A DNA stretch of 64,000 nucleotides from Patescibacteria group bacterium (GTDB lineage: Bacteria; Patescibacteriota; Minisyncoccia; Minisyncoccales; Staskawiczbacteraceae). The notes under the pieces were generated by a model, which ran no database searches, was not told the origin of the DNA, and was given only the letters and a program-made list of their open reading frames with translations. The stretch spans positions 6,527 through 70,526 of the forward strand of contig JAHIOM010000013.1 in NCBI GenBank assembly GCA_018895235.1, written 5' to 3'. Shown piece by piece: positions 2,866 to 56,217 of the stretch (positions are counted from its first letter, which is position 1; each line of letters starts with the position of its first letter). The translations under genes and the position numbers were made by a program.

Positions 2866-5600
2866 TATTTTTTAGAACCGACCTTAATTAGATGAGATTT
2901 TCTTGGTTTCATTAATAGGGCCGGCATCTCAAAAACAATCTTGCTGTCTTTGGCATCAATAATGATATTGTCGCCTTCTTTAATTTCATTGGTCACCAGC
3001 TTCAAAGATAAAGGATCCAAAATTGTCCTTTGGATAACTCTTTTCAAGGGACGAGCGCCTAAGTTCGGGTCAAAACCCTTATTTGCCAAAAGTTCTTTTG
3101 CTTTTTCAGAAATTCTAAAAGTAATGTTTTTTAATTTAAGCCTTTTTTCTACTTTTGCAAGTTCCAATTCGACGATCTTCTTTATTTCCGGCCTTCTTAA
3201 ATAATTGAAGATTATAATCTCGTCTATTCTGTTCAAAAACTCAGGCCTGAACTGGTCTTTTAATGCTTCTGTTATTTTATCTTTCATTGATTCTCGCTGG
3301 GCCTGGTCTTCTTTGGTGGAAAAGCCAATTGCTGACATTTTATTAATGTAATCAGAGCCGACATTAGATGTCATTATAATGATTGAGTTTTTAAAAGAAG
3401 CCACTCTGCCCTTAGAATCGGTCAGCCGGCCGTCCTCAAAAATCTGAAGCAAGATATTAAATACTTCAGGGTGGGCTTTTTCTATCTCGTCCAGTAAAAT
3501 CACGGCATAAGGCCTTCTCCTTATTTTTTCTGTTAACTGGCCGCCCTCTTCATAACCGACATAACCAGGAGGAGAACCGATAATCTTGGCTACGGTGTGT
3601 TTTTCCATATATTCTGACATATCCAAGCGGATCAGGGATTTTTCATCATTGAAAAGAAATTCGGCTAGAGCCCTAGCAGTTTCTGTTTTGCCAACGCCGG
3701 TTGGACCCAAGAACAAGAAAGAACCCATTGGCCGGTTTTCCTCGGCAATGCCTGCCCTTGCCCTTCTAATAGCCCTGGAAATAGCTTCAATACCCTCTTC
3801 CTGGCCAATAACTCTCTTTTTCATAATGTCTTCCATATTTTCCAGTTTTTGGGCTTCTTCAGTCATTAACTTAGTTACTGGAATTCCTGTCCAACGAGAA
3901 ACAACATCAGCAACATCTTCTTCGGTTACTTCTTCTTTAATATAGTGGTGCTTGCTTTGAAGTTTTATTAATTTCTTCTCAGCTTCTTTTGACTCTTTTA
4001 ATAATTGGGGGATTTTACCGTATTTTATTTCAGCTACCTTTTCTAGATTGGCATCTCTTTGGGCGATTTCCGTCTGATATGATAATTCGTCAATTTTCTT
4101 CCTGATTTCTTTTATCTTGTCCACTAATTCTTTTTCTGCCTGCCATTTTGCTCTTATACCTTTTGATTTTTCCCGTAAATCAGCCAAAGAGCGCTCAATT
4201 ACTTTTAACCGCCTTGCTGACCCGGTTTCTTTTTTTAAGGCCTGTTTTTCAATTTCAAGTTTGGTAATTTCTTTATCATATTTTTCAAGGTCAACCGGAG
4301 AAGATTCAATTTCCAAACGTAAAGAAGAACCAGCTTCGTCCATCAAATCAACTGCTTTGTCCGGCAAAAACCTGTCTGAAATATAGCGGTTGCTTAACTC
4401 CACTGCTGCACAAATCGCAGAATCCTTAATTCTTACTCCGTGATGAACCTCGTATTTTTCCTTAATACCGCGCAGAATAGCAACTGTATCTTCGGGAGTC
4501 GGCTCCTGAACATAAATTGGCTGAAACCTTCTTTCCAAAGCAGGATCTCTTTCAATATATTTTTGATATTCTTTTAAGGTAGTGGCACCGATAGCTCGCA
4601 GCTCGCCTCTTGCTAAAGCAGGTTTTAGTAAATTGGAAGCATCAATTGCGCCTTCAGCTGCACCGGCTCCAACTAGCGTATGAAGTTCGTCAATAGATAA
4701 AATGTATTTACCGTCAGCTCGATTGATTTCTTTTAAGAGGGCTTTTACCCTTATTTCAAACTCGCCCCTGTATTTAGTTCCGGCAACTAAAGAACCCAAA
4801 TCCAAAGCAATTATTTCTTTGTTTTTTAAAAACTCGGGCACATCACCCTTGCTGATTTTTTGGGCAAAACCCTCAACAATAGCTGTTTTACCAACTCCGG
4901 CTTCGCCTATTAAAACCGGGTTATTTTTTGTCCTTCTGGAAATAATTTGCATTAAACGCCGAATTTCGTTTTCTCTGCCGATAATCGGATCTATTTTTCC
5001 GGAAGCAGCTAAGTTGGTCAGATTTCTGGTGTACTTTTCAACAACCTGATATTTTGATTCTGGTTCGGGATCAGTAATTCTTACTCCGCCCCTGATTTGG
5101 GATAAGATTTTTAAAATCGCATCATATTCAAGCTTGCTTGTTTTTAGGGTAGCTGCATCTCCTGCGCCTGGCTGTAAAAAAGTTACTTTATCTAAAACAT
5201 CTTTAGCATTGGTTGGAGTATCAAGCAGGCCTAAAAATAAATGCTCCACTGAAACAAACTCATCACTCATTTTAAGAGCTTCTTGCCTGGCTCTTTCTAG
5301 AACCTTTGCCATATCCTGGGTTAAATAGAACTGGCCAACTCCTGAAGGAGTAACAATTGTCGGAATTTTGTTAACCTGCGTTTCAACTTTCTTTTTAAGA
5401 TTTTCCGGGTCAACGCCCAGTTTTTGAAGTATAGTCAAAATAACACTTTCTTCTTGCGATAGTAAAGATAAAAGCAAATGCAGGGCATCAACCTGTTGCT
5501 GACCCCTTTCTTGGGCAAACGACTGAGCGGAAAGTATGGATTCCTGGGCTTTATTGGTAAAATTAGCTCCGTTCACACTTCGACTCGTCCTTCGTTTCAC
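2865..5600 (-). CDS. clpB: ATP-dependent chaperone ClpB (two AAA+ modules, middle coiled-coil domain)
   Basis: Walker A GEAGVGKT and GPTGVGKT, long coiled-coil M-domain, and N-domain HLLLSLL. The ORF begins at GTG (5598-5600) with SD GAGGA 4 nt upstream. An alternative GTG start lies at 5574-5576. Confidence 0.9.
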
Positions 5601-5968: not shown

Positions 5969-6834
5969 TTAGGTTTTTTATGGAAGGAAAATATCTTTTG
6001 AGTTGAGTCAACAAACCACATTTCTATCCATTGATTGACCCTTTTTCTTTCTTCTGAGGACAAAGTCTTAACAAAATCTTTTTGTTTTGCTAGTTTTTTT
6101 GCAATCTCGTCAGTCGAAATTTTGCTTAATTCTCCAAAGGTTTTTCTGGCAGACCCGACTAAATCTCCGTGAGCGCCTAAAAGTAAATCTTTTCTGAGCC
6201 AATTAGCCGAACTGTTAACGGCGCGGGCATAAACAGAGAATAAAGAGTTTGAAGCCGGGACCGCCCACTCCATCATTTTCTTCATATCGGGCTTTTTCCG
6301 GTCGCATTGCTTTGAGTACCGGGAAATCAAAACATCAATGACAATTGTTAAAAGTTCGGGCATGCTTAAGGTGATTCCCATCATAAAATCATGCTCGTCT
6401 TCTGTTTGGCACTGGATAAAACTAATCTCTTGTTCTTTTAGAAAAGACAAAACTCTTTGAGCTTTCTTATTTCTCTTTGTCGTATTGCCGTTGATAATAA
6501 CCCATTTTTGGCCATTTAACGGAATATGGGGACCGTGCAATGGATGTAAGGACAGATGAACAGCGCCTGTGGTTTTGATTATCCTGGACAAACGCCGTTT
6601 TATAGAACAAACATCAATAACTAACTGGTCGGGGCTTAAACGCACGTCTTTGATAATGCCGGGAATGGCATCACGCGGAACAGCCAACCAAATAACATCT
6701 GATGTCCAAATCTTTCCCCAGGTTCTGGGAGAATTGTTTCTGTCTACCAAATTAACCGGGCCCAGTTGTTTCAAAAGCGGGAAAAGAAGATTCTTCGCTA
6801 TATCTCCTTTTGCTCCAACAATTGCGTTAATCAT
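5965..6834 (-). CDS. prephenate/arogenate dehydrogenase (TyrA family) with a C-terminal extension
   Basis: N-terminal Rossmann IVGAKGDIA, ...DVIWLAVP...VIDVCSIK...LHPLHGP matches the TyrA core (HPmaG). The C-terminal ~120 aa are unassigned. Confidence 0.6.
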   Translation of the reverse strand: MINAIVGAKGDIAKNLLFPLLKQLGPVNLVDRNNSPRTWGKIWTSDVIWLAVPRDAIPGIIKDVRLSPDQLVIDVCSIKRRLSRIIKTTGAVHLSLHPLHGPHIPLNGQKWVIINGNTTKRNKKAQRVLSFLKEQEISFIQCQTEDEHDFMMGITLSMPELLTIVIDVLISRYSKQCDRKKPDMKKMMEWAVPASNSLFSVYARAVNSSANWLRKDLLLGAHGDLVGSARKTFGELSKISTDEIAKKLAKQKDFVKTLSSEERKRVNQWIEMWFVDSTQKIFSFHKKPK

Positions 6835-29604: not shown

Positions 29605-30156
29605 CTAGTAAGCAGGGCTTGTTATTTTTCCTAAAGCAGCCAAAGGGAAAACCCGAACAAAAACCTTGCCGATAATATTCTCTGCTGGCAAGGGCCCCCA
29701 GTTTCTTGAATCTGAGGAGTAAGCCCGATTGTCGCCTAAAACAAAGTACTCTTTTTCTCCTAGAATAATCTGCAGATTTCCATAGGTATTATCTTCCGCG
29801 TATGGAAGATAAATTTCTTCATTTAAAACTTGCGTTTGATTATTTTTAGTATAGATAAAAATCTTACCGTCCTTGATTTCAATGGTTTCGCCCGGTAGTC
29901 CAATAATTCTTTTAATGAATCTGTGGCTTGGATTTTTGGGGTATTTAAAAACAACAACATCTCCTCTTTGAGGGGAATTTAATCTATACGATATCTCATC
30001 AATAATCAGGTAGTCGCCGGAATGGAAGTTTGGGACCATTGAATCACCTTTAACTATAAACGGCTGAAATAAAAAATAGCGGATAGGTACCACTATAGCC
30101 AAAGCAATGAGAAATATTTTTGCAAGTTCCCAAATATATAAAAGTGTCTGTTTCAT
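29605..30156 (-). CDS. lepB: signal peptidase I
   Basis: N-terminal TM helix, S26 catalytic Ser context GDSMVPNF, and Lys box RGDVVVF. Confidence 0.85.
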   Translation of the reverse strand: MKQTLLYIWELAKIFLIALAIVVPIRYFLFQPFIVKGDSMVPNFHSGDYLIIDEISYRLNSPQRGDVVVFKYPKNPSHRFIKRIIGLPGETIEIKDGKIFIYTKNNQTQVLNEEIYLPYAEDNTYGNLQIILGEKEYFVLGDNRAYSSDSRNWGPLPAENIIGKVFVRVFPLAALGKITSPAY

Positions 30157-30292
30157 ACCCCGTTAGAAGTCCTTGACGAAAAAATTTTAGGATAAAATTT
30201 TTTCTACCCTAAGGACAAATTATAATTTGATATACTTTTCTATAATGCCACGATAAAAGTCCTTGTTATAATACTCAGACTTCTAACGGGGC
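30157..30292. repeat. 136-bp segment bounded by a perfect 14-bp inverted repeat (CCCCGTTAGAAGTC / GACTTCTAACGGGG), with an internal direct repeat AAGTCCTTG and an extended -10-like TGTTATAAT
   Basis: Seen in sequence immediately upstream of the lepB ATG. MITE-like geometry or a 5'-leader stem. Confidence 0.35.
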
Positions 30293-30339
30293 ATAACAGT
30301 ATAATTTTCCAATTGTTATTATTTTAGCAACTTTTTTAC

Positions 30340-30636
30340 TTTTTAGCAAGCCCCCACACCAATTTTGGCAATGAACTTTAATTGCCCACAACGACAGGCG
30401 AAGCCACTTCGCTTTTTATCGTCGGAATATCCAAGAACATTGTTGAAATTGGTGTGGGGGCGAGCAACGAAGAAGATTGTCTGAATTCGCCCGCCCGAAG
30501 GGAAGCCAGAAAATGAGATGATTTCTGCGTTGCTCCTACTCAATGTAGTGTAAAACTACATTTCGGTCGTCGCGCCTTGAAATCATCTCATTTTCTGGCT
30601 TCTAAAGCTGGCTCTGGTTCGAATCCTGCACCCTAA
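30340..30636. ncRNA. candidate structured ncRNA or selfish element: serial perfect inverted repeats ending in a tRNA-like GGTTCGAATCCTGCACCC
   Basis: A 14-bp perfect IR (30351-30364 / 30447-30460) and a 22-bp perfect IR (30504-30525 / 30579-30600) enclosing an 8-bp hairpin (30542-30562). There is no credible ORF; the 66-aa minus ORF is low-complexity. Identity and strand are unresolved. Confidence 0.3.
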
Positions 30637-30672
30637 AAAAAGAAAAAAGGACCACTAATTTTAGCAGTCCTT
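30634..30672 (-). terminator. rho-independent terminator of the 30689-31315 gene (the hairpin also reads as a weaker + strand terminator)
   Basis: Minus strand: AAAGGACTGCTAAAATTAGTGGTCCTTTTTTCTTTTTTT. Confidence 0.55.
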
Positions 30673-30688
30673 TATTTATCTGGTTAAG

Positions 30689-31315
30689 TTAAACCTTAAT
30701 CTCTTCTGATGGGCGTAAACAAACTATATTACATCCTTTCTGCACTAATTTGTGATAATGATCTCTACTAATAGCTGGCGTGGCAAAAACCACGCTGCTT
30801 GCTCTATTAGCAATGAAAATTTCGCGCAAAGCCAACAAACTAATCGGATCCCAAAGAGAAAAATCACCGCAAAGAAGAACATTGCCTCGAATTTCGGGAT
30901 AAGGAATATCTATCTGTTTGGACAAACCAAGCGATTGAGATATAAGTTTGCTACGCAGATTAATCAATTGTCGAAGAATCGGAGTTTCTCGAGGGGTTTG
31001 ATTATCACGGCAAATCTTGATTTCAAAATCTTCTCCTATAGCGAAAACCTTGGCATTTCCATGAGTTGTCAGAACTTTCCATCTACTCGGACTTAATTGG
31101 TGCAAGAAAACACAGCAAGTGTCTTTTAAATTGTGGGCGAGATTAGCAGCCAGCGACGCACTTATTTCTGAAAATTTTCCCGCTTTGTGTTTATCAACAA
31201 CCCCAACTAACAAATCAATCTGCGGACACTTTTTTCTGACAATCCGCGAAAGTGGACCAACTAAATCGGTTCGGGTTAATGGTTGCATCGCAAATCCTGT
31301 TGTTTTACCGTCCAT
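30689..31315 (-). CDS. hypothetical protein (moderately GC-rich)
   Basis: 208-aa ORF with atypical composition. Fragments (VLLCGDFS, THGNAKV) faintly resemble metallophosphoesterase motifs but occur in non-canonical order. Confidence 0.35.
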   Translation of the reverse strand: MDGKTTGFAMQPLTRTDLVGPLSRIVRKKCPQIDLLVGVVDKHKAGKFSEISASLAANLAHNLKDTCCVFLHQLSPSRWKVLTTHGNAKVFAIGEDFEIKICRDNQTPRETPILRQLINLRSKLISQSLGLSKQIDIPYPEIRGNVLLCGDFSLWDPISLLALREIFIANRASSVVFATPAISRDHYHKLVQKGCNIVCLRPSEEIKV

Positions 31316-31326
31316 GGTTTCTTCTC

Positions 31327-31593
31327 CTAAGAAACGGCCATATTGCCCAAGTTGTGCCGCACGAAAAACTTCCTCACAAAAGGAGGCGGTACATCTTTTA
31401 CTTCCCGGTTATCGCCGTTCCTTCTCTGCTTCCTCTGCAGATTGGTTGCCATCCGTCGAACATCTGACCAAGGAACACCCAAGGCCTTACCCAATGTCCT
31501 CATCTGCTGCTGGTTTTTGGGATCAACCCATAGTAAGACTTCCTGCTTTTCAGACGTGATTTTTTGAGATGATGTACTGTTGTTACCTGCCAT
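31327..31593 (-). CDS. hypothetical small protein, possibly DNA-binding
   Basis: 88 aa; the segment LGKALGVPWSDVRRMATNLQRKQ looks HTH-like. Co-directional and immediately upstream of 30689-31315. Confidence 0.3.
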   Translation of the reverse strand: MAGNNSTSSQKITSEKQEVLLWVDPKNQQQMRTLGKALGVPWSDVRRMATNLQRKQRRNGDNREVKDVPPPFVRKFFVRHNLGNMAVS

Positions 31594-32472: not shown

Positions 32473-33471
32473 TTAAAGCCTAGAAATTTTTTGTTTCAGC
32501 TCATGGCCGTTGCAATGTTTTAATACCCCAAAATATGACTGCAGGGTTTGGTTGAATAAATCTTTTGATATCTTGCCCTTGTCAAAATCAAGGGATTTTA
32601 ATTTTATCTTTTCCAGCATTCTCTTTTTTGTTTTTGTTCTTAAAATCCTATGATATGGGAGGTCAACGTAACCCAGAAAATCAATTCCTTGATGATGTTT
32701 TTTAATTATTACTTTACCTTTATGTAAAGACAATTTCAGTTTCTCTTTTAAGAACTCACTAATTACGGAAATAATACTTTCAAGATGTTCTCTATCACTA
32801 GTTAAGATAACGAAATCGTCGCAATAGCGGATATAATGTTTTATTCTCAAATTTTGTTTAATAAAATAATCCAATTCGTTAAGGTATATGTTGGCGAATA
32901 ATTGGCTTGTAATATTTCCTAATGGAAGGCCTTTGTCGGACAATGTTGAAAAACTTTTAATGATTTTTTCTATTAACCAAACGGCGTTTGTGTCTTTAAT
33001 TTTCTTTTTAATCAAAAAAGTCAGAATATCTTGGTCAATCGAATTAAAGAACTTTTTAATGTCGCATTTTAAGATAAAACAGGTTTTGGTTCTGTTTTTA
33101 CTGGTTTTTCTGGCGAACATCTGAAGTCGGCTGACCGCTTTATGTGTTCCTTTGGCGTTTCTACAGGAATAAGAATCGAATATGAATGATTTGTCGAAAA
33201 TAGGATACAAAATTCTGAATATGGCGTGGTGCAAAACTCTGTCTCCTACGCAGGCTTTATGGATTTTTCTAGGTTTTGGGTCGCAGATGTTAAATGATGT
33301 ATAATCAGAATGAGAATAGATTTTTATTTTTAATTCGTGATGGAGTTCAAAAATATTGTTTTCTAAATTGTATTCAAACTCCTGAACGTCTTTCTTTTTT
33401 CTTTTTCCTTTTTTAAATTCGTCCCAAGCTAAAAACAAGTTATCAAGAGAAATAATCTCTTTAAACATATT
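32473..33471 (-). CDS. diversity-generating retroelement reverse transcriptase (the ORF extends to 33579 via TTG through a poly-G tract; the likely start is Met at 33471)
   Basis: RT motifs: LFLAWDEFKKGKRKKKDVQEFEYNLENNIFELHHEL (DGR-RT-type N-terminus), KPRKIHKACVGDRVLHHAI (motifs 1-2), GLPLGNITSQLFANIYLNELD (the [I/L]GxxxSQ form of motif 4), YIRYCDDFVIL (YxDD), FLGY (motif 7). Confidence 0.85.
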   Translation of the reverse strand, partial: NMFKEIISLDNLFLAWDEFKKGKRKKKDVQEFEYNLENNIFELHHELKIKIYSHSDYTSFNICDPKPRKIHKACVGDRVLHHAIFRILYPIFDKSFIFDSYSCRNAKGTHKAVSRLQMFARKTSKNRTKTCFILKCDIKKFFNSIDQDILTFLIKKKIKDTNAVWLIEKIIKSFSTLSDKGLPLGNITSQLFANIYLNELDYFIKQNLRIKHYIRYCDDFVILTSDREHLESIISVISEFLKEKLKLSLHKGKVIIKKHHQGIDFLGYVDLPYHRILRTKTKKRMLEKIKLKSLDFDKGKISKDLFNQTLQSYFGVLKHCNGHELKQKISRL

Positions 33472-33483
33472 ATATCTCTGGAT

Positions 33484-33549
33484 ATAATTATTACGCTCGG
33501 TCGAAGAACAAAAATAAATTTTTTCTCTTCTCTCTCGCTTATAATTATG
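33484..33549 (+). repeat. E-family repeat element E3 between the RT start and avd
   Basis: ATAATTATTACGCTCGGTCGAAG...CTCGCTTATAATTATG; 60 of 66 positions shared with E4 reverse complement. Confidence 0.55.
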
Positions 33550-33567
33550 GAAAACTTTTCCTCTAAT

Positions 33568-33577
33568 CCCCCCCCCC
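33568..33577. repeat. homopolymeric C10 (G10 on the RT strand) tract 13 nt upstream of the avd TTG start
   Basis: Counted directly: ctctaatCCCCCCCCCCaac. With C10 the upstream ATG (33547-33549) reads into a TAA at 33586-33588. With C9 that ATG is in frame with avd. Confidence 0.8.
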
Positions 33578-33589
33578 AACCAGTTTAAT

Positions 33590-33919
33590 TTGCCAATTTT
33601 GCATAGAGTTTATGAATTATATAAATTATTTTACCAATATGAGCAACACCTTCCTCAAAAAGATCGCTATTGTATCGGACAAAAATGCGAAAAAATAATT
33701 TTAGATATTTTAGAACTGATTATTGGAACAATTCAGTCACCTAAAAATAGAAAACTAGAACTACTGAATGAAGCAAGCATAAAGTTAAATATTTTAAGAA
33801 TAATTATTCGTTTATCAAAAGATATAAAAGCATTAGACTTTAAAAAATATATTACCCTACAGGAAAATATAAATGAAATAGGAAGAATGCTAGGTGGCTG
33901 GATAAAATCACTAAAATAA
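33590..33919 (+). CDS. avd: Avd-like DGR accessory protein (four-helix-bundle, 23S rRNA intervening-sequence protein family); TTG start as drawn
   Basis: LPQKDRYCIGQKCEKIILDI...NEIGRMLGGWIKSLK matches the IVS-protein/Avd family (LPKeekY.LgdQlrRAa....EIGKMLnGLIksl). It is divergent from the RT and followed by the terminator hairpin AACACCCCAAATGGGGTGTT (33931-33950). Confidence 0.65.
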   Translation: MPILHRVYELYKLFYQYEQHLPQKDRYCIGQKCEKIILDILELIIGTIQSPKNRKLELLNEASIKLNILRIIIRLSKDIKALDFKKYITLQENINEIGRMLGGWIKSLK

Positions 33920-33970
33920 TCTTTAACAAAACACCCCAAATGGGGTGTTCATCTTTGATAGAGAAGGAAG

Positions 33971-34085
33971 TTCCTAACGGAGGAAAGGCCGATGTTGTCA
34001 TTGCGATTGTCATCCCAGTAGTTGTTGACATTGAGACCACTTGAGTCGAAGTTACCGATATTGACACGGTTGCCGTCCGAGTTAA
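33971..34085 (-). repeat. DGR template repeat (TR); the sense strand is minus
   Basis: 115 bp aligning colinearly with 34379-34493. Translated in the target frame it gives NSDGNRVNIGNFDSSGLNVNNYWDDNRNDNIGLSSVR, with AAC (Asn) codons at the variable positions. Confidence 0.85.
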
Positions 34086-34305
34086 GAATTTGCCCATTTT
34101 TATCCAAACCACTGAAAGTTGTCTTTATTTTAATAGAAAGATTCCTTTCTGTATTTTATTCGGGAGCAGTCTCCTAGGCGACATCTCCGCTAAAAACGGG
34201 CAAGAAGTTCAGTCTTTATTAGATTAATTCTCGCGAGGCTAAGCCGTAACCCAACCTTCATTAACGAGATATTATATTTTATCAGTTTTAAAAAGAAAAA
34301 TAAAT

Positions 34306-34334
34306 GCCCCTCGACTGCTATGCAATCGAGGGGC
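34306..34334 (-). terminator. GC-rich hairpin (GCCCCTCGA-loop-TCGAGGGGC) 45 nt downstream of VR/IMH; target-gene terminator and possible DGR homing-enhancing stem-loop
   Basis: 9-bp perfect stem followed on the minus strand by a T-rich tract. A GC-rich hairpin/cruciform downstream of VR is a known DGR feature in Bordetella phage BPP-1. Confidence 0.5.
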
Positions 34335-34371
34335 TTCAAGGGTTCAATCTTCAAACATCAAAGATTCAAGA

Positions 34372-35256
34372 CTAAACCTTCCTGACGGAGGAAAGGCCGA
34401 TGAGGCCATGGCGAGTGCCATCCCAGTAGTGGCTGACATCGAGACCACTCCAGCCGAAGCTACCGACATCGACACGGAGGCCGTCCGAGCTAATATCCGA
34501 GCAATGAACATATACTTGCTCGAATAACCGCTCGTTAGTGGCCATAAAATGACCGATAATGGTGTAAACCATTACTTGGGCAGTTGGCGTTTCCTCATCC
34601 TTGGCGAGAAGCGATTGCTGCTCATTCCAGGTTTTGGAGGTCGAGTTGCTGACTGGCGTCTTGCGGACAAGTTGCCAGCTGACCTCGCCGTGTTCTTTGG
34701 CAAACTTTTCCTGGTTATGCCAGTCCTGGCTGTAGAACAATCCTTTGTCCTGCACCTTTCCACGAATCTCGAGGATCGAGATTGGGAAGATTGCCACAAA
34801 GACATGAGTGTCCTTGCACTCCTGGAGAACGGCTTCGGAGAACGGAATCTCGGAGAGGATGGCGAGTTGCTGCTTCGTGGAATTAACCCCGAAGTGCTTG
34901 ATCGCCTCCTCGACACCGAAGAAGTTCTTGCCCATGATTTCATGGGCGCGCTTCTGAGATGTCGTAGCTTCGTAACCACCTCTCTGAATCAACCCTACCA
35001 CCTTTGTGGCAAGGTCGTTGCCCTTTGAGTCAATGACCTTCTGGGCAAGTTCGTCCGTGAGCCCCGCCTTCTCCATTTTGAGAAGAAATTCGTGCTCATT
35101 GTGCACCGAAATAGTGCGTTCATCTGCTTGGCTTACCATGGTATTCATAGCACACCTTCCTTTCTTATAAAGAACAAAAACTCGTTGCTGATTACCCGCA
35201 ACTAGGCTATTAAGCACTATGCTTAATATGACTATATTATTGCAGCTACGCTGCAT
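34372..35256 (-). CDS. DGR target (variable) protein with a C-terminal CLec-like variable region; GC-rich, no signal peptide (alternative start M37 at 35148)
   Basis: C-terminus ...YVHCSDISSDGLRVDVGSFGWSGLDVSHYWDGTRHGLIGLSSVRKV* is encoded by the VR. The VR ends 5 nt before the stop codon. Confidence 0.8.
   Translation of the reverse strand: MQRSCNNIVILSIVLNSLVAGNQQRVFVLYKKGRCAMNTMVSQADERTISVHNEHEFLLKMEKAGLTDELAQKVIDSKGNDLATKVVGLIQRGGYEATTSQKRAHEIMGKNFFGVEEAIKHFGVNSTKQQLAILSEIPFSEAVLQECKDTHVFVAIFPISILEIRGKVQDKGLFYSQDWHNQEKFAKEHGEVSWQLVRKTPVSNSTSKTWNEQQSLLAKDEETPTAQVMVYTIIGHFMATNERLFEQVYVHCSDISSDGLRVDVGSFGWSGLDVSHYWDGTRHGLIGLSSVRKV
34379..34493 (-). repeat. DGR variable repeat (VR) at the 3' end of the target gene
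   Basis: About 20 mismatches versus TR over 115 bp. About 18 lie at positions where the TR sense strand has A (T on the + strand), with substitutions to C, G or T. The IMH-like 3' end GGCCTTTCCTCCGTCAGGAA differs from the TR (..GTTAGGAA) by one base. Confidence 0.85.
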
Positions 35257-37360: not shown

Positions 37361-37918
37361 TCAGCTAGTCGTTGGAACAGAATCTTTTTTAGGAATTGGA
37401 TTCATTTTTAAAGCATCAAAAACCGCAAGAGAAACTGAGGAAACTATTCCTTTTTTTTTGCCATTCACTTTAGCAATCATCTTTCCGCTTTCAATCCTAG
37501 CGGCTGACTCGACTTCGTCGAATTCCACCTCAATTCCGGATTCAAGGGTTAAAACATCACCGGGAACAATAAAACCATTAAACTTTACTAAAGCAATCTC
37601 TCTGGCGGCAAAAGCTTTGTTAATTAAAAGCGGAGACATTTCAGGATGTTTGCTAATAAGTACTCCGAGAAGCTGAAAAGCCATCTCTGGTATTTCAACC
37701 CCTCTCATAACGGGCATCCCTGGAATCGGTTCATGACCCTCACAAACCTCTGCCGTTACAAGAAATTCTCCAACGACTTTATTTTCCATAATAATAACTT
37801 TATCCAAAAGCAACATTCTGCCACGATGGAATAAAATTGTCATAATTTCTTCTTTATCAACAATAATTTCTTTTTTGCCAACAAAAAAATCACCAATCCA
37901 TTTAATTACTCTTTTCAT
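37361..37918 (-). CDS. FabZ/FabA-like hotdog-fold dehydratase
   Basis: ILFHRGRMLLLDKV...EGHEPIPGMPVMRGVEIPEMAFQLLGVL matches (3R)-hydroxyacyl-ACP dehydratase FabZ motifs. Confidence 0.6.
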   Translation of the reverse strand: MKRVIKWIGDFFVGKKEIIVDKEEIMTILFHRGRMLLLDKVIIMENKVVGEFLVTAEVCEGHEPIPGMPVMRGVEIPEMAFQLLGVLISKHPEMSPLLINKAFAAREIALVKFNGFIVPGDVLTLESGIEVEFDEVESAARIESGKMIAKVNGKKKGIVSSVSLAVFDALKMNPIPKKDSVPTTS

Positions 37919-38005
37919 ATTATTCTCCCATAAAAATGTTGTCTAAGAGCTGGTTTAGATTCTACATTAAAATCCTAAAATTTCAAGGGTTCTGGTCTTT
38001 TGTGC

Positions 38006-38061
38006 TATAATTGCAAGCGAGGGAGGAGAAGAAAAAAACATTTTTATTCTCCGACCGAGTG
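38006..38061 (-). repeat. E-family repeat element E4 (reverse orientation) upstream of dprA
   Basis: Reverse complement CATAATTGTGCACTCGGTCGGAGAATAAAAATG...CTCGCTTGCAATTATAG. Central stem GGAGAA/TTCTCC. Confidence 0.55.
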
Positions 38062-55628: not shown

Positions 55629-56030
55629 TTATGCCACTGGAACTATTCTTTCCATACGTTTTAAGCCAGAATATGGCTCTGGGTTGAGTAGTTCGTCTAA
55701 ATGATAATAAATGCCGGGTTCACTGCTTGGGCAGGAAAATCGCGCAACTTCTTTACCTTGGTAAAACAGAACTATAGTGGGAACATCATTAATGGAAATT
55801 TGCTGACAAATATTTTTATCTTCGCCCGAATTCACCCAAAAAAATCTTACTCTTCCGCCGTATCTTTCTGCAAACCTTTCCGCTAAAATCGACATATTCA
55901 ATGCTTCGCCATCAATATTTTGGGTACAAGTAAAAAAGAGGGCTAAAGGGTTATTTTCCTTTAATAATTCGGCAAAACCGCCGTTGCCGTTATCCCTAAA
56001 CTGCGGGAATGTTGGTTTAAATTCTCCCAT
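55629..56030 (-). CDS. thioredoxin-fold protein lacking a canonical CxxC
   Basis: beta-alpha-beta pattern ...ALFFTCTQN...RVRFFWVN...VPTIVLFYQGKEV resembles thioredoxin-like fold. Confidence 0.4.
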   Translation of the reverse strand: MGEFKPTFPQFRDNGNGGFAELLKENNPLALFFTCTQNIDGEALNMSILAERFAERYGGRVRFFWVNSGEDKNICQQISINDVPTIVLFYQGKEVARFSCPSSEPGIYYHLDELLNPEPYSGLKRMERIVPVA

Positions 56031-56088
56031 AAGTTCTCACCTCTTTTCCTTGACCAATAGAAAGTTGTTAAGGACCTATTAGGGTACA

Positions 56089-56107
56089 GGGTTCGAATCT
56101 TGTGCCC
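56089..56107 (+). other. tRNA-like 3'-end fragment GGGTTCGAATCTTGTGCCC (no complete tRNA can be folded); 15 of 18 identical to 30616-30633
   Basis: T-loop consensus GGTTCGAATC but no 5' half. Confidence 0.4.
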
Positions 56108-56217
56108 TTAATCAATTCTAGATTTGATAAATAAATAGGTCAAGATGGGGCTTTTGCACAAGTAAAAAAAGAGCGCCCAGTACTTTTAAGTACATTAGGC
56201 GCTTTACGAATTGAGAA

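Follow-up and report, generated by a model that had tools for sequence, protein, structure and literature searches.

A hairpin-rich spacer upstream of lepB in a Patescibacteria genome as a probable nest of palindromic insertions, one of them with a structured core shared across phyla

Here we describe a hairpin-rich spacer in a stretch of 64,000 nt (in the following called the window) from a Patescibacteria group bacterium of the Staskawiczbacteraceae (assembly GCA_018895235.1, contig JAHIOM010000013.1, positions 6,527 to 70,526 of the forward strand). The spacer comprises 532 nt between lepB (29605-30156, minus strand) and a gene for a hypothetical protein of 208 aa (30689-31315, minus strand). 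It is probably a nest of three independent palindromic insertions around an ancestral terminator and the ancestral lepB promoter. We refer to its three parts as A, M2 and hairpin 1, and to the loci fetched for comparison by L-numbers. The block itself is ordinary mobile-element debris and leads to two less ordinary things, namely an active MITE (miniature transposable element with inverted repeats) that targets start codons and an unannotated, covarying core motif that crosses phyla.

The lepB spacer, its inserted parts and element A

Eight loci with the gene order pth-(88 aa)-208 aa-spacer-lepB-hisS were fetched. In seven of these (L009, L011, L012, L013, L015, L018 and L021) the spacer measures 114-395 nt and contains none of the three hairpin blocks; its constituents are the upstream terminator and a promoter block that is conserved (CTTGATAAAAAGTAAAAAATTTGATAYAAT). 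Since the spacers of these relatives lack the three blocks yet keep terminator and promoter, the block is regarded as inserted. The eighth locus, L014 (a JGI metagenome contig with a LepB 85% identical to that of the window), has a spacer of 544 nt, in which A and M2, the latter complete, occupy the same site. In the window the insertion point of M2 lies just past the T-run of the terminator of the 208-aa gene, and the ancestral lepB promoter survives between the insertions. An initial annotation had taken the block for a single object; it rather decomposes into three unrelated insertions with the lepB promoter in between. Homologue clusters of the 208-aa protein number only eight, those of LepB many. 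The parts of the spacer are as follows.

30154-30157, minus strand: left copy of the target-site duplication of A, CATA on the plus and TATG on the minus strand, the ATG of which is the lepB start codon
30158-30291: element A, 134 bp, with perfect 14-bp terminal inverted repeats (TIRs; CCCCGTTAGAAGTC), an AT-rich inner hairpin (30178-30204) and no open reading frame (ORF)
30158-30171 / 30278-30291: first inverted repeat, 14 bp perfect, 106 nt between the arms
30265-30273: extended -10 TGTTATAAT inside element A (promoter scan)
30292-30295, minus strand: right copy of the target-site duplication of A (CATA / TATG), opening the mini-ORF ATG CCC CGT TAG on the lepB strand
30321-30349, minus strand: probable lepB promoter, TTGCTA - 17 nt - TG-TAAAAT (promoter scan), ancestral and outside all insertions
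30350-30461: hairpin 1, a single-copy palindromic segment of 112 bp with perfect outer arms of 16 bp
30350-30365 / 30446-30461: second inverted repeat, 16 bp perfect, extension to 40 nt possible at 75%
30462-30634: M2, a mobile element of 270-325 bp, here truncated at its 3' end
30502-30525 / 30579-30602: third inverted repeat, 24 bp perfect, with an 8-bp hairpin (30543-30563) inside
30616-30633: T-loop/acceptor-like motif GGTTCGAATCCTGCACCC
30646-30673, minus strand: intrinsic terminator of the upstream 208-aa gene, ancestral and conserved in L013 and L014

The three perfect inverted repeats described in the initial annotation are indeed present at their places, with slightly longer arms than given there, and so are the extended -10 in the interior of the first repeat and the T-loop-like motif. 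As had been stated, a credible ORF is missing: the spacer has only ORFs of 66 aa and 44 aa, which span the hairpins. For the 24-mer arm pair the chance expectation is 0.00 in shuffled sequences. The region 30330-30640 folds with -126.7 kcal/mol (z = -10.3) on the plus strand and with -125.9 kcal/mol (z = -8.8) on the minus strand, a folding energy far beyond chance. No second copy of any inverted-repeat arm is found within the window.

Element A belongs to the MITEs, was active recently and duplicates TATG at its target. Copies of 131-134 bp without ORF were found at lepB (window and L014) and, in tandem, at ftsA (L021). The copy of L014 occupies the lepB site as in the window and has a diverged interior. 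Its TIRs, like those of the copies in L021, are identical to those in the window, which match at 14 of 14 bp (30158-71 and 30278-91). In L021 two tandem copies (6146-6276 and 6280-6413) stand right before the ATG of ftsA. The region (6140-6416) reads TATG[A]TATG[A]TATGCCAAGAGG (TATG[A]TATG[A]TATG). L022 encodes an identical LepB and has flanks 99.2% identical to those of L021, and it shows the empty site (6140-6160; TTTTATGCCAAGAGG / TTTTATGCC) at the place that is filled in L021. This filled/empty pair demonstrates that A was recently active and generates a 4-bp TATG duplication. With TIRs, a target-site duplication read from filled and empty sites, copies at several loci and no coding capacity, A fits bacterial MITEs on all tested criteria (features according to the review PMC10969869).

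In both independent insertions of A (lepB and ftsA) the start codon is the exact insertion point. The mini-ORF ATG CCC CGT TAG runs into the TIR of A and is arranged in the same way in L014 and L021, and the real AUG stands directly after the 14-bp stem of A. A comparison of this layout with ribosome shunting, where a hairpin comes after a short ORF, is pure speculation. As A lands on start codons and regenerates them, it offers a natural test of the tolerance to a 134-nt hairpin before an AUG. The AT-rich inner hairpin by the right TIR of A covaries between copies. The extended -10 (TGTTATAAT) is not conserved in the other A copies (L014 and L021) and was hence rejected as a conserved outward promoter of the element.

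Hairpin 1 stands where the right-hand ~97 nt of M2 should be. It is missing at the homologous position in L014, L009 and L025, and no other copy was found in the window, the fetched loci or viral contigs. No duplication flanks it. Its right arm ends in GGGGC, which is the ancestral flank in L013 and L014. Hairpin 1 may belong to a third mobile family, or a local rearrangement by fold-back may have replaced the right end of M2.

The M2 element and its core motif

M2 is mobile, as follows from filled and empty orthologous sites together with copies at other loci at 96% identity. Complete copies with both TIRs of ~25 bp are present in L014 (1614-1885), L009 (2293-2562) and L025 (2858-3182). That of L014 starts with AGGGCACAGGATTCGAACCAGAGCC and finishes with GGTTCTAGTTCGAATCCTGTACCCT. 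Window and L014 are 96% identical from the terminator through ...CTTCTTCGTTGCTCG (position 30462 of the window), followed by complete divergence; L014 has ~97 nt including the right TIR where the window has hairpin 1. The window copy thus lacks the right third of the element, with the right TIR and the greater part of domain 2, and keeps the left TIR only. One of the identities considered in the initial annotation, a decayed miniature element with a tRNA-3'-like fragment, was essentially right: the copy ends at 30461/30462 and its right end is gone.

At the lepB site, window and L014 carry M2, whereas the site is empty in the remaining seven syntenic relatives. In L009, M2 is located between dprA and a gene for 185 aa. 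This copy is 96% identical to that of the window, in which the orthologous dprA spacer (37918-38011) is empty of M2. A promoter-like site has its -10 box just upstream of the start of this copy, which thus lies within the 5' untranslated region (UTR) of the following gene. In L025 (Parcubacteria bacterium Gr01-1014_30) M2 follows directly after an alaS-like gene; this was the one real copy obtained by probing genomes with a TIR pattern, next to 14 chance matches. Hence M2 shows TIRs, presence and absence at the same site and occupancy of different loci, and the miniature-element reading of the initial annotation holds in that the elements are missing from syntenic relatives and found at other loci.

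The 18-mer of the T-loop-like motif has one relative in the window (56082-56107, three mismatches). It belongs to a 26-bp palindrome with TTCGAA at its centre, located in the spacer that follows the gene 55629-56030. Judged by its sequence, this looks like a collapsed M2-family copy with fused TIRs (56079-56110, TTA-GGGTACAGGGTTCGAATCTTGTGCCC-TTA, fusion at TTCGAA) and a TTA direct repeat around it. L121 holds an analogous copy with a deleted apex. The copy of M2 in the lepB spacer is probably inert debris. Its parts, and those of its core domain, are listed below.

30462-30493, minus strand: remnant of domain 2, 5' strand of a stem plus TTCTTCGTTGCTCG, pairing partners missing (alignment with complete copies)
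30494-30502, minus strand: linker mini-hairpin CCC-UUC-GGG between the domains, conserved in L009, L014, L025, L052, L154 and L112
30502-30602, minus strand: domain 1, corresponding to hairpin 2 (covariance model R1)
30602-30579 and 30525-30502, minus strand: stem P2, 24 bp perfect
30579-30566, minus strand: core strand S1, CAAGGCGCGACGAC
30563-30543, minus strand: hairpin P3
30539-30525, minus strand: core strand S2, GUAGGAGCAACGCAG
30610-30634, minus strand: left TIR, AGGGTGCAGGATTCGAACCAGAGCC on the minus strand, which is the T-loop/acceptor-like motif

Hairpin 2 is the core domain of M2. It consists of P2, followed by CAAGGCGCGACGAC opposite GGAGGAGCAACGCAG and then by P3. The covariation of P2 and P3 was evaluated on an alignment of 55 sequences with 500 shuffles and slid controls. 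In P2 and P3, 87.6% of the cells are paired (60.7% in shuffles), 174 cells show double changes (61 in shuffles) and the covariation score is 0.647 (0.195 in shuffles). None of the 500 shuffles reached the observed values, and the slid controls were paired to 30-61% only. The part between both stems was modelled as an irregular helix of GCGACGAC over GGAGGAGC with two tandem G.A/A.G pairs, each of them between C-G pairs. At core pairs 33/84 and 36/81, G-C replaces C-G in 5 and 7 of the 35 sequences aligned, respectively, and the sequences with flips comprise Patescibacteria, a low-G+C contig and an Acidobacteria-type contig. This natural variant, in which CGAC and GGAG have swapped sides, amounts to two C-G to G-C flips and supports the register of the irregular helix. 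With covariance model R1, hairpin 2 of the window scores 70.4 bits (E = 1.6e-16) and the same domain in L009, L014 and L025 67-70 bits. Hairpin 2 is therefore a member of the top-scoring type of a covariation-supported motif absent from Rfam. A novel structured noncoding RNA (ncRNA) had been among the identities considered in the initial annotation; this was partly right, for hairpin 2 alone and not for the rest of the block.

All M2 copies in Patescibacteria have AAAATGAGATGATTTCAAGGCGCGACGAC, then a variable hairpin, then AGGAGCAACGCAGAAATCA. JGI metagenome contigs were searched with the pattern AGGCGCGACGAC-N15-45-GAGCAACGCAG, for which ~0.5 chance matches are expected by our own estimate, and the core pattern was found in at least 120 contigs. 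Their G+C is mostly 0.60-0.75 and in a few cases 0.35-0.5 (among the matches listed). The core lies at the apex of an imperfect hairpin of ~160 nt or within a two-domain element of 240-330 nt. Exact look-up of the flanking proteins identified as carriers an Acidobacteria metagenome-assembled genome (MAG; L141) and a MAG labelled 'Deltaproteobacteria' (L056), and a protein cluster at 90% identity led to an Elusimicrobia MAG (L106). With Patescibacteria included, bacteria assigned to four or more phyla share the sequence and fold of the core. The core presents 29 nearly invariant, U-free nucleotides as a G.A-rich helix between two covarying stems, in genomes of 35%-75% G+C and in four phyla.

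The genomic distribution is that of dispersed repeats: 48 of 120 cores (among the matches listed) are no more than 150 nt away from the end of their contig, compared to ~13 expected, one 10-kb locus holds three copies, and no protein family recurs beside the core copies in the comparison of neighbours among loci. The core was not found in plasmid or viral collections, by which phage or plasmid copies were discarded as a candidate. Rfam 15 was applied to the window (gathering score and E ≤ 10), L025 (E ≤ 10), ten loci at gathering score and nine loci at E ≤ 1. The core has no match in any tested locus, which speaks against a known ribozyme or riboswitch, and consensus sequences of such RNAs did not fit it. 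The 19 loci beyond the window and L025 gave no Rfam family either, and taken together the scans showed only sub-threshold chance matches to miRNA hairpins. A comparison with one 16S rRNA sequence suggested no convincing complementarity to the core. A full-text literature search by sequence and topic returned nothing relevant on the core. It is an unannotated motif, missing from Rfam 15 and the searchable literature. Two loci show particular arrangements. L059 (392-8414) carries three copies within 8 kb, all on one strand and one of them degenerate, and L041 (75-238) has two core units back to back and inverted, the second in the flipped form (GGAG...CGAC).

The complete M2 copies of Patescibacteria (L009, L014 and L025) bear a second, flipped core unit on the opposite strand (31-36 bits), which is not present in the window. 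With two inverted core units, each complete element is a doublet inside one hairpin closed by the TIRs. As the core units are mutually complementary, this accounts for the complementarity of 30462-30474 to 30523-30535 over 13 nt as well as for the alternative RNAfold folds of L025 and L112.

The two strands are not equivalent. When folds are computed with G-U pairs disallowed, 67 isolated 1x1 mismatches are G.T/T.G and 13 are A.C/C.A. The sense strand folds more stably in 63 of 69 elements, and the nearest upstream gene is co-oriented in 25 cases versus 7. All these counts were made over related, non-independent copies. They indicate selection on a single-stranded form of the strand reading CAAGGCGCGACGAC...GGAGGAGCAACGCAG, which is the minus strand of the window. 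Candidates for this form are a transcript from read-through and an intermediate of single-stranded DNA (ssDNA).

Four independent assemblies of identical sequence end in the loop of hairpin 2 (30550-30580; L002, L003, L006-L008), and contigs from either side of the break overlap by 19 nt only. This suggests a drop in read coverage at the perfect 24-bp hairpin and not strain variation. An invertible segment was likewise rejected, as the assemblies are 100% identical and the 19-nt overlap corresponds to a coverage gap without a branch. Such hairpin blocks break short-read assemblies.

tRNA likeness and neighbouring genes

The T-loop/acceptor-like motif had led the initial annotation to consider a degenerate or permuted tmRNA or a tRNA. 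As far as sequence goes, the likeness is genuine: at least 120 viral contigs contain a match to the 17-mer GGGYRCAGGATTCGAAC, and 15 of 20 checked matches are the 3' end of a tRNA called by ARAGORN (Tyr, Thr, Ser, Gln or Glu). It may reflect descent from a tRNA or convergence. The tRNA and tmRNA readings as such are refuted. In complete copies the motif is found inverted at both ends, which identifies it as the terminal inverted repeat.

That the spacer encodes a degenerate, permuted or intron-containing tRNA or tmRNA has next to no probability left, even though GGGUGCAGGAUUCGAAC resembles the 5' end of a tmRNA and its complement the 3' end of a tRNA. ARAGORN, with permuted tmRNAs included, gave neither a tRNA nor a tmRNA in the spacer and none in L025, and no Rfam model of the tRNA/tmRNA clan matches up to E = 10. 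The Rfam scan that had been suggested for this region returned no known family at gathering score or E ≤ 10; up to E = 10 only sub-threshold plant miRNA hairpin models appear, which is what any long hairpin yields. Neither ARAGORN nor the Rfam tRNA model finds a cloverleaf in the spacer, and none is present in any copy of M2. A tRNA-like domain with a tag reading frame is likewise absent from the window and the complete copies (ARAGORN, Rfam tmRNA models). The 5' strand of the T-stem is left unpaired (TCTGG versus CCTGC), and close relatives lack the locus. A hand search gave no 5' acceptor partner, no tag ORF and no intron-split tRNA, the ORF of 66 aa being the only long frame. The hairpin with the putative CUA anticodon (CTGGC-TTCTAAA-GCTGG) does exist in the window and is not conserved, since the homologous stretch of L025 pairs over only ~2 bp. 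An attachment-site scar, that is a displaced tRNA 3' end left behind by an island of the integrase type, had also been suggested in the initial annotation and is hardly more credible. In its favour, genuine genes for tRNA-Tyr, -Thr and -Ser have this very 17-mer at their 3' end, and the adjoining 208-aa and 88-aa genes are higher in G+C than their surroundings. However, both genes keep their synteny in relatives free of the motif, complete copies carry it at each end in inverted orientation ~270 bp apart, and the window has neither an integrase nor a matching tRNA. Its only tRNAs, tRNA-Tyr (10490) and tRNA-Leu (42796), on which ARAGORN and Rfam 15 at gathering score agree, end differently at the 3' side. 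For annotation this means that what resembles part of a tRNA or tmRNA beside long perfect hairpins can turn out to be a MITE end.

For the 208-aa and 88-aa genes (30689-31593) there is no Pfam match, and among 5.8 billion proteins they have only eight homologue clusters. Their examined homologues are all located in the pth-lepB neighbourhood of related Patescibacteria. Their G+C is 0.43-0.48 compared to ~0.33 in the flanks. As cargo of an island they were rejected, because they are syntenic in relatives without the hairpins. Further away, a complete diversity-generating retroelement (DGR) is located at 32473-35256 with the following parts.

32473-33579, minus strand: reverse transcriptase of the DGR (PF00078)
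33590-33919, plus strand: bAvd gene of the DGR (PF22296)
33971-34085: template repeat of the DGR
34379-34493: variable repeat of the DGR, at the 3' end of a gene for 294 aa (34372-35256, minus strand)

The repeats of the DGR are 115 nt long and 83% identical, and 17 of 19 mismatches are a T in the template repeat on the plus strand, i.e. an adenine on the coding strand. Since pth lies directly beside mfd in L015 and L021, the DGR cassette is an insertion in the window. A retron or DGR RNA of this reverse transcriptase was dismissed as an explanation of the hairpins, because the enzyme is part of a complete DGR with its own template and variable repeats ~3.3 kb away. A link between reverse transcriptase and M2 was dismissed as well, since the former is missing from relatives which carry M2.

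Mobilisation, rival explanations and known systems

M2 is most likely a non-autonomous, hairpin-forming transposon with a conserved structured module, which would be moved in trans by a transposase encoded elsewhere. Most copies of soil metagenomes have CTAG, TTAA, TTAG or CTAA at both ends, and YTAR is the target-duplication motif of IS5 (PMC10359306). M2 is flanked by TTA..TTA in L009 and the remnant at 56079, by TTA..TTG in L014 and by AAA..TAA in L025. TTA..TTA and YTAR flanks would point to a DDE enzyme similar to those of the IS5 superfamily. The ends of soil copies and M2 show a YGAAR motif ~13-17 nt from the tip; a YGAAR-like motif probably also occurs in the ends of IS5 and IS903. The tandem-GA helix might serve as a recognition platform on a single-stranded form of the element, presumably with a protein as partner. 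This form would be either a transcript read through from the upstream gene or an ssDNA intermediate.

Several points weigh against this interpretation. The account of three insertions leaves the origin of hairpin 1 unexplained, and the M2 copy of the window sits between a terminator and the lepB promoter without a promoter of its own. Of the core, 23 positions are invariant by construction of the search pattern; conservation not imposed by the pattern is seen at CA and GGAG on the flanks and in divergent copies that the model recovered. The mismatch counts suffer from the relatedness of the copies. CTAG and TTAA are palindromic, which makes a direct repeat indistinguishable from an extension of the inverted repeat, the non-palindromic cases go both ways with respect to a duplication, and the filled/empty pairs of M2 are too diverged at the junctions for a duplication to be read. 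In the fetched loci, neither the surroundings nor the interior of copies yielded a transposase with matching ends, and the only TIR pair at a distance of ~1.1 kb (L117) encloses an ORF similar to alpha/beta-hydrolases. Finally, the ends of M2 and soil copies differ between lineages with a nearly invariant centre, which is unlike a plain DDE MITE, as ordinary families of MITEs have common ends and variable interiors.

On the grounds of that ORF, distant TIR pairs as borders of an autonomous parent were rejected. In L117 itself (4362-5487) two ends of type-1 elements stand inverted, ~1.1 kb apart, around the ORF of 288 aa. Possible readings are the capture of a gene between half-elements and two truncated copies without relation to each other.

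Two rival explanations concern the core family, and a third proposal extends it. The main rival is a mechanism as in REPINs, doublets of repetitive extragenic palindromic (REP) sequences, which would have the element move as ssDNA by means of a domesticated HUH tyrosine transposase (RAYT or TIRYT) recognising the folded hairpin, with the tandem-GA helix as binding or cleavage site of the enzyme, no DDE enzyme and no true target duplication. Selection on the fold of one strand, with its excess of G.T over A.C mismatches, is expected for ssDNA as much as for RNA. The orientation bias relative to neighbouring genes, the compensatory changes in the stems and the inverted core doublet within one long hairpin in complete Patescibacteria copies, comparable to the two REPs of a REPIN, fit as well, and Acidobacteria carry TIR-flanked tyrosine transposases with matching repeat families, described as TIRYT (PMC3733652). 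We nevertheless consider such a mechanism unlikely: the ends show YTAR or TTA instead of a GTAG or CGTC tag, the flanks resemble the YTAR and TNA duplications of the IS5 type, no copy has an HUH gene beside it, and the elements exceed the length of a REP 4-8 times. It is even more improbable that the hairpin 2 family consists of host ncRNA genes or cis-regulatory RNAs of benefit to the cell, possibly binding a protein or the ribosome by means of the GGAGGAG-containing helix, with the repeat-like behaviour being secondary. A core nearly invariant across hosts with a G+C of 0.35-0.75 and strong covariation would suit such RNAs. So would strand asymmetry and co-orientation with the upstream gene, which fit a position in the 3' UTR, and the element of L009 in a 5' UTR just downstream of a -10 box. 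These observations are opposed by presence and absence at orthologous sites among relatives, truncated or collapsed copies, several copies per genome with contigs tending to break there, the lack of a consistently adjoining gene class and a window copy without domain 2 and promoter.

As the ends vary by lineage around a nearly invariant centre, the core may also be a functional RNA in its own right. We tentatively propose that the module of P2, tandem-GA helix and P3 could be a new class of structured RNA, binding a protein or the ribosome or being catalytic, that spreads between phyla within hairpin-shaped mobile elements; the two-domain form of Patescibacteria, with one functional copy per strand, would then yield an active transcript in either orientation of insertion. 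If the core truly is a functional RNA or an ssDNA recognition module, it constitutes a new family that can be tested directly and offers natural variants by the hundreds. For the reduced genomes of the candidate phyla radiation, mobile elements have barely been described.

Among known systems, tRNAs and the tRNA-like domains of tmRNAs share with M2 the terminal 17-18 bases, which are identical to T-loop and acceptor 3' strand. M2 differs in lacking cloverleaf, T-stem, acceptor partner and tag ORF, and the motif serves as the two arms of an inverted repeat. An attachment-site scar would be distinct from the complete copies, as these have the motif inverted at both ends.

With the IS5 family, soil copies have the YTAR-type bounds and Patescibacteria copies the TTA bounds in common. 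In contrast to that family, no transposase of the IS5 type is found beside or inside any copy, and the duplication is ambiguous due to palindromic targets. REPs and REPINs, together with the TIRYT repeat families (PMC3733652), resemble the core family as multi-copy extragenic palindromes with strand-specific hairpin selection, inverted doublets and enrichment after genes. M2 is much longer, has its conserved part at the apex, and lacks a GTAG/CGTC tag at its ends as well as an adjoining HUH gene; no neighbouring gene recurs in the loci compared.

The closest comparison is that with bacterial MITEs such as Correia, ERIC, RUP and QMITE, as reviewed in PMC10969869. These are small, non-coding, intergenic and multi-copy, have TIRs, vary in presence between strains, and their transcripts fold into long stable hairpins. 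M2 agrees with them in size, TIRs, mobility and the lack of an ORF. It differs in that no parent insertion sequence was found, that the stems of M2 and soil copies change compensatorily on one strand, and that their ends vary by lineage around a central 29-nt module which is nearly invariant across phyla.

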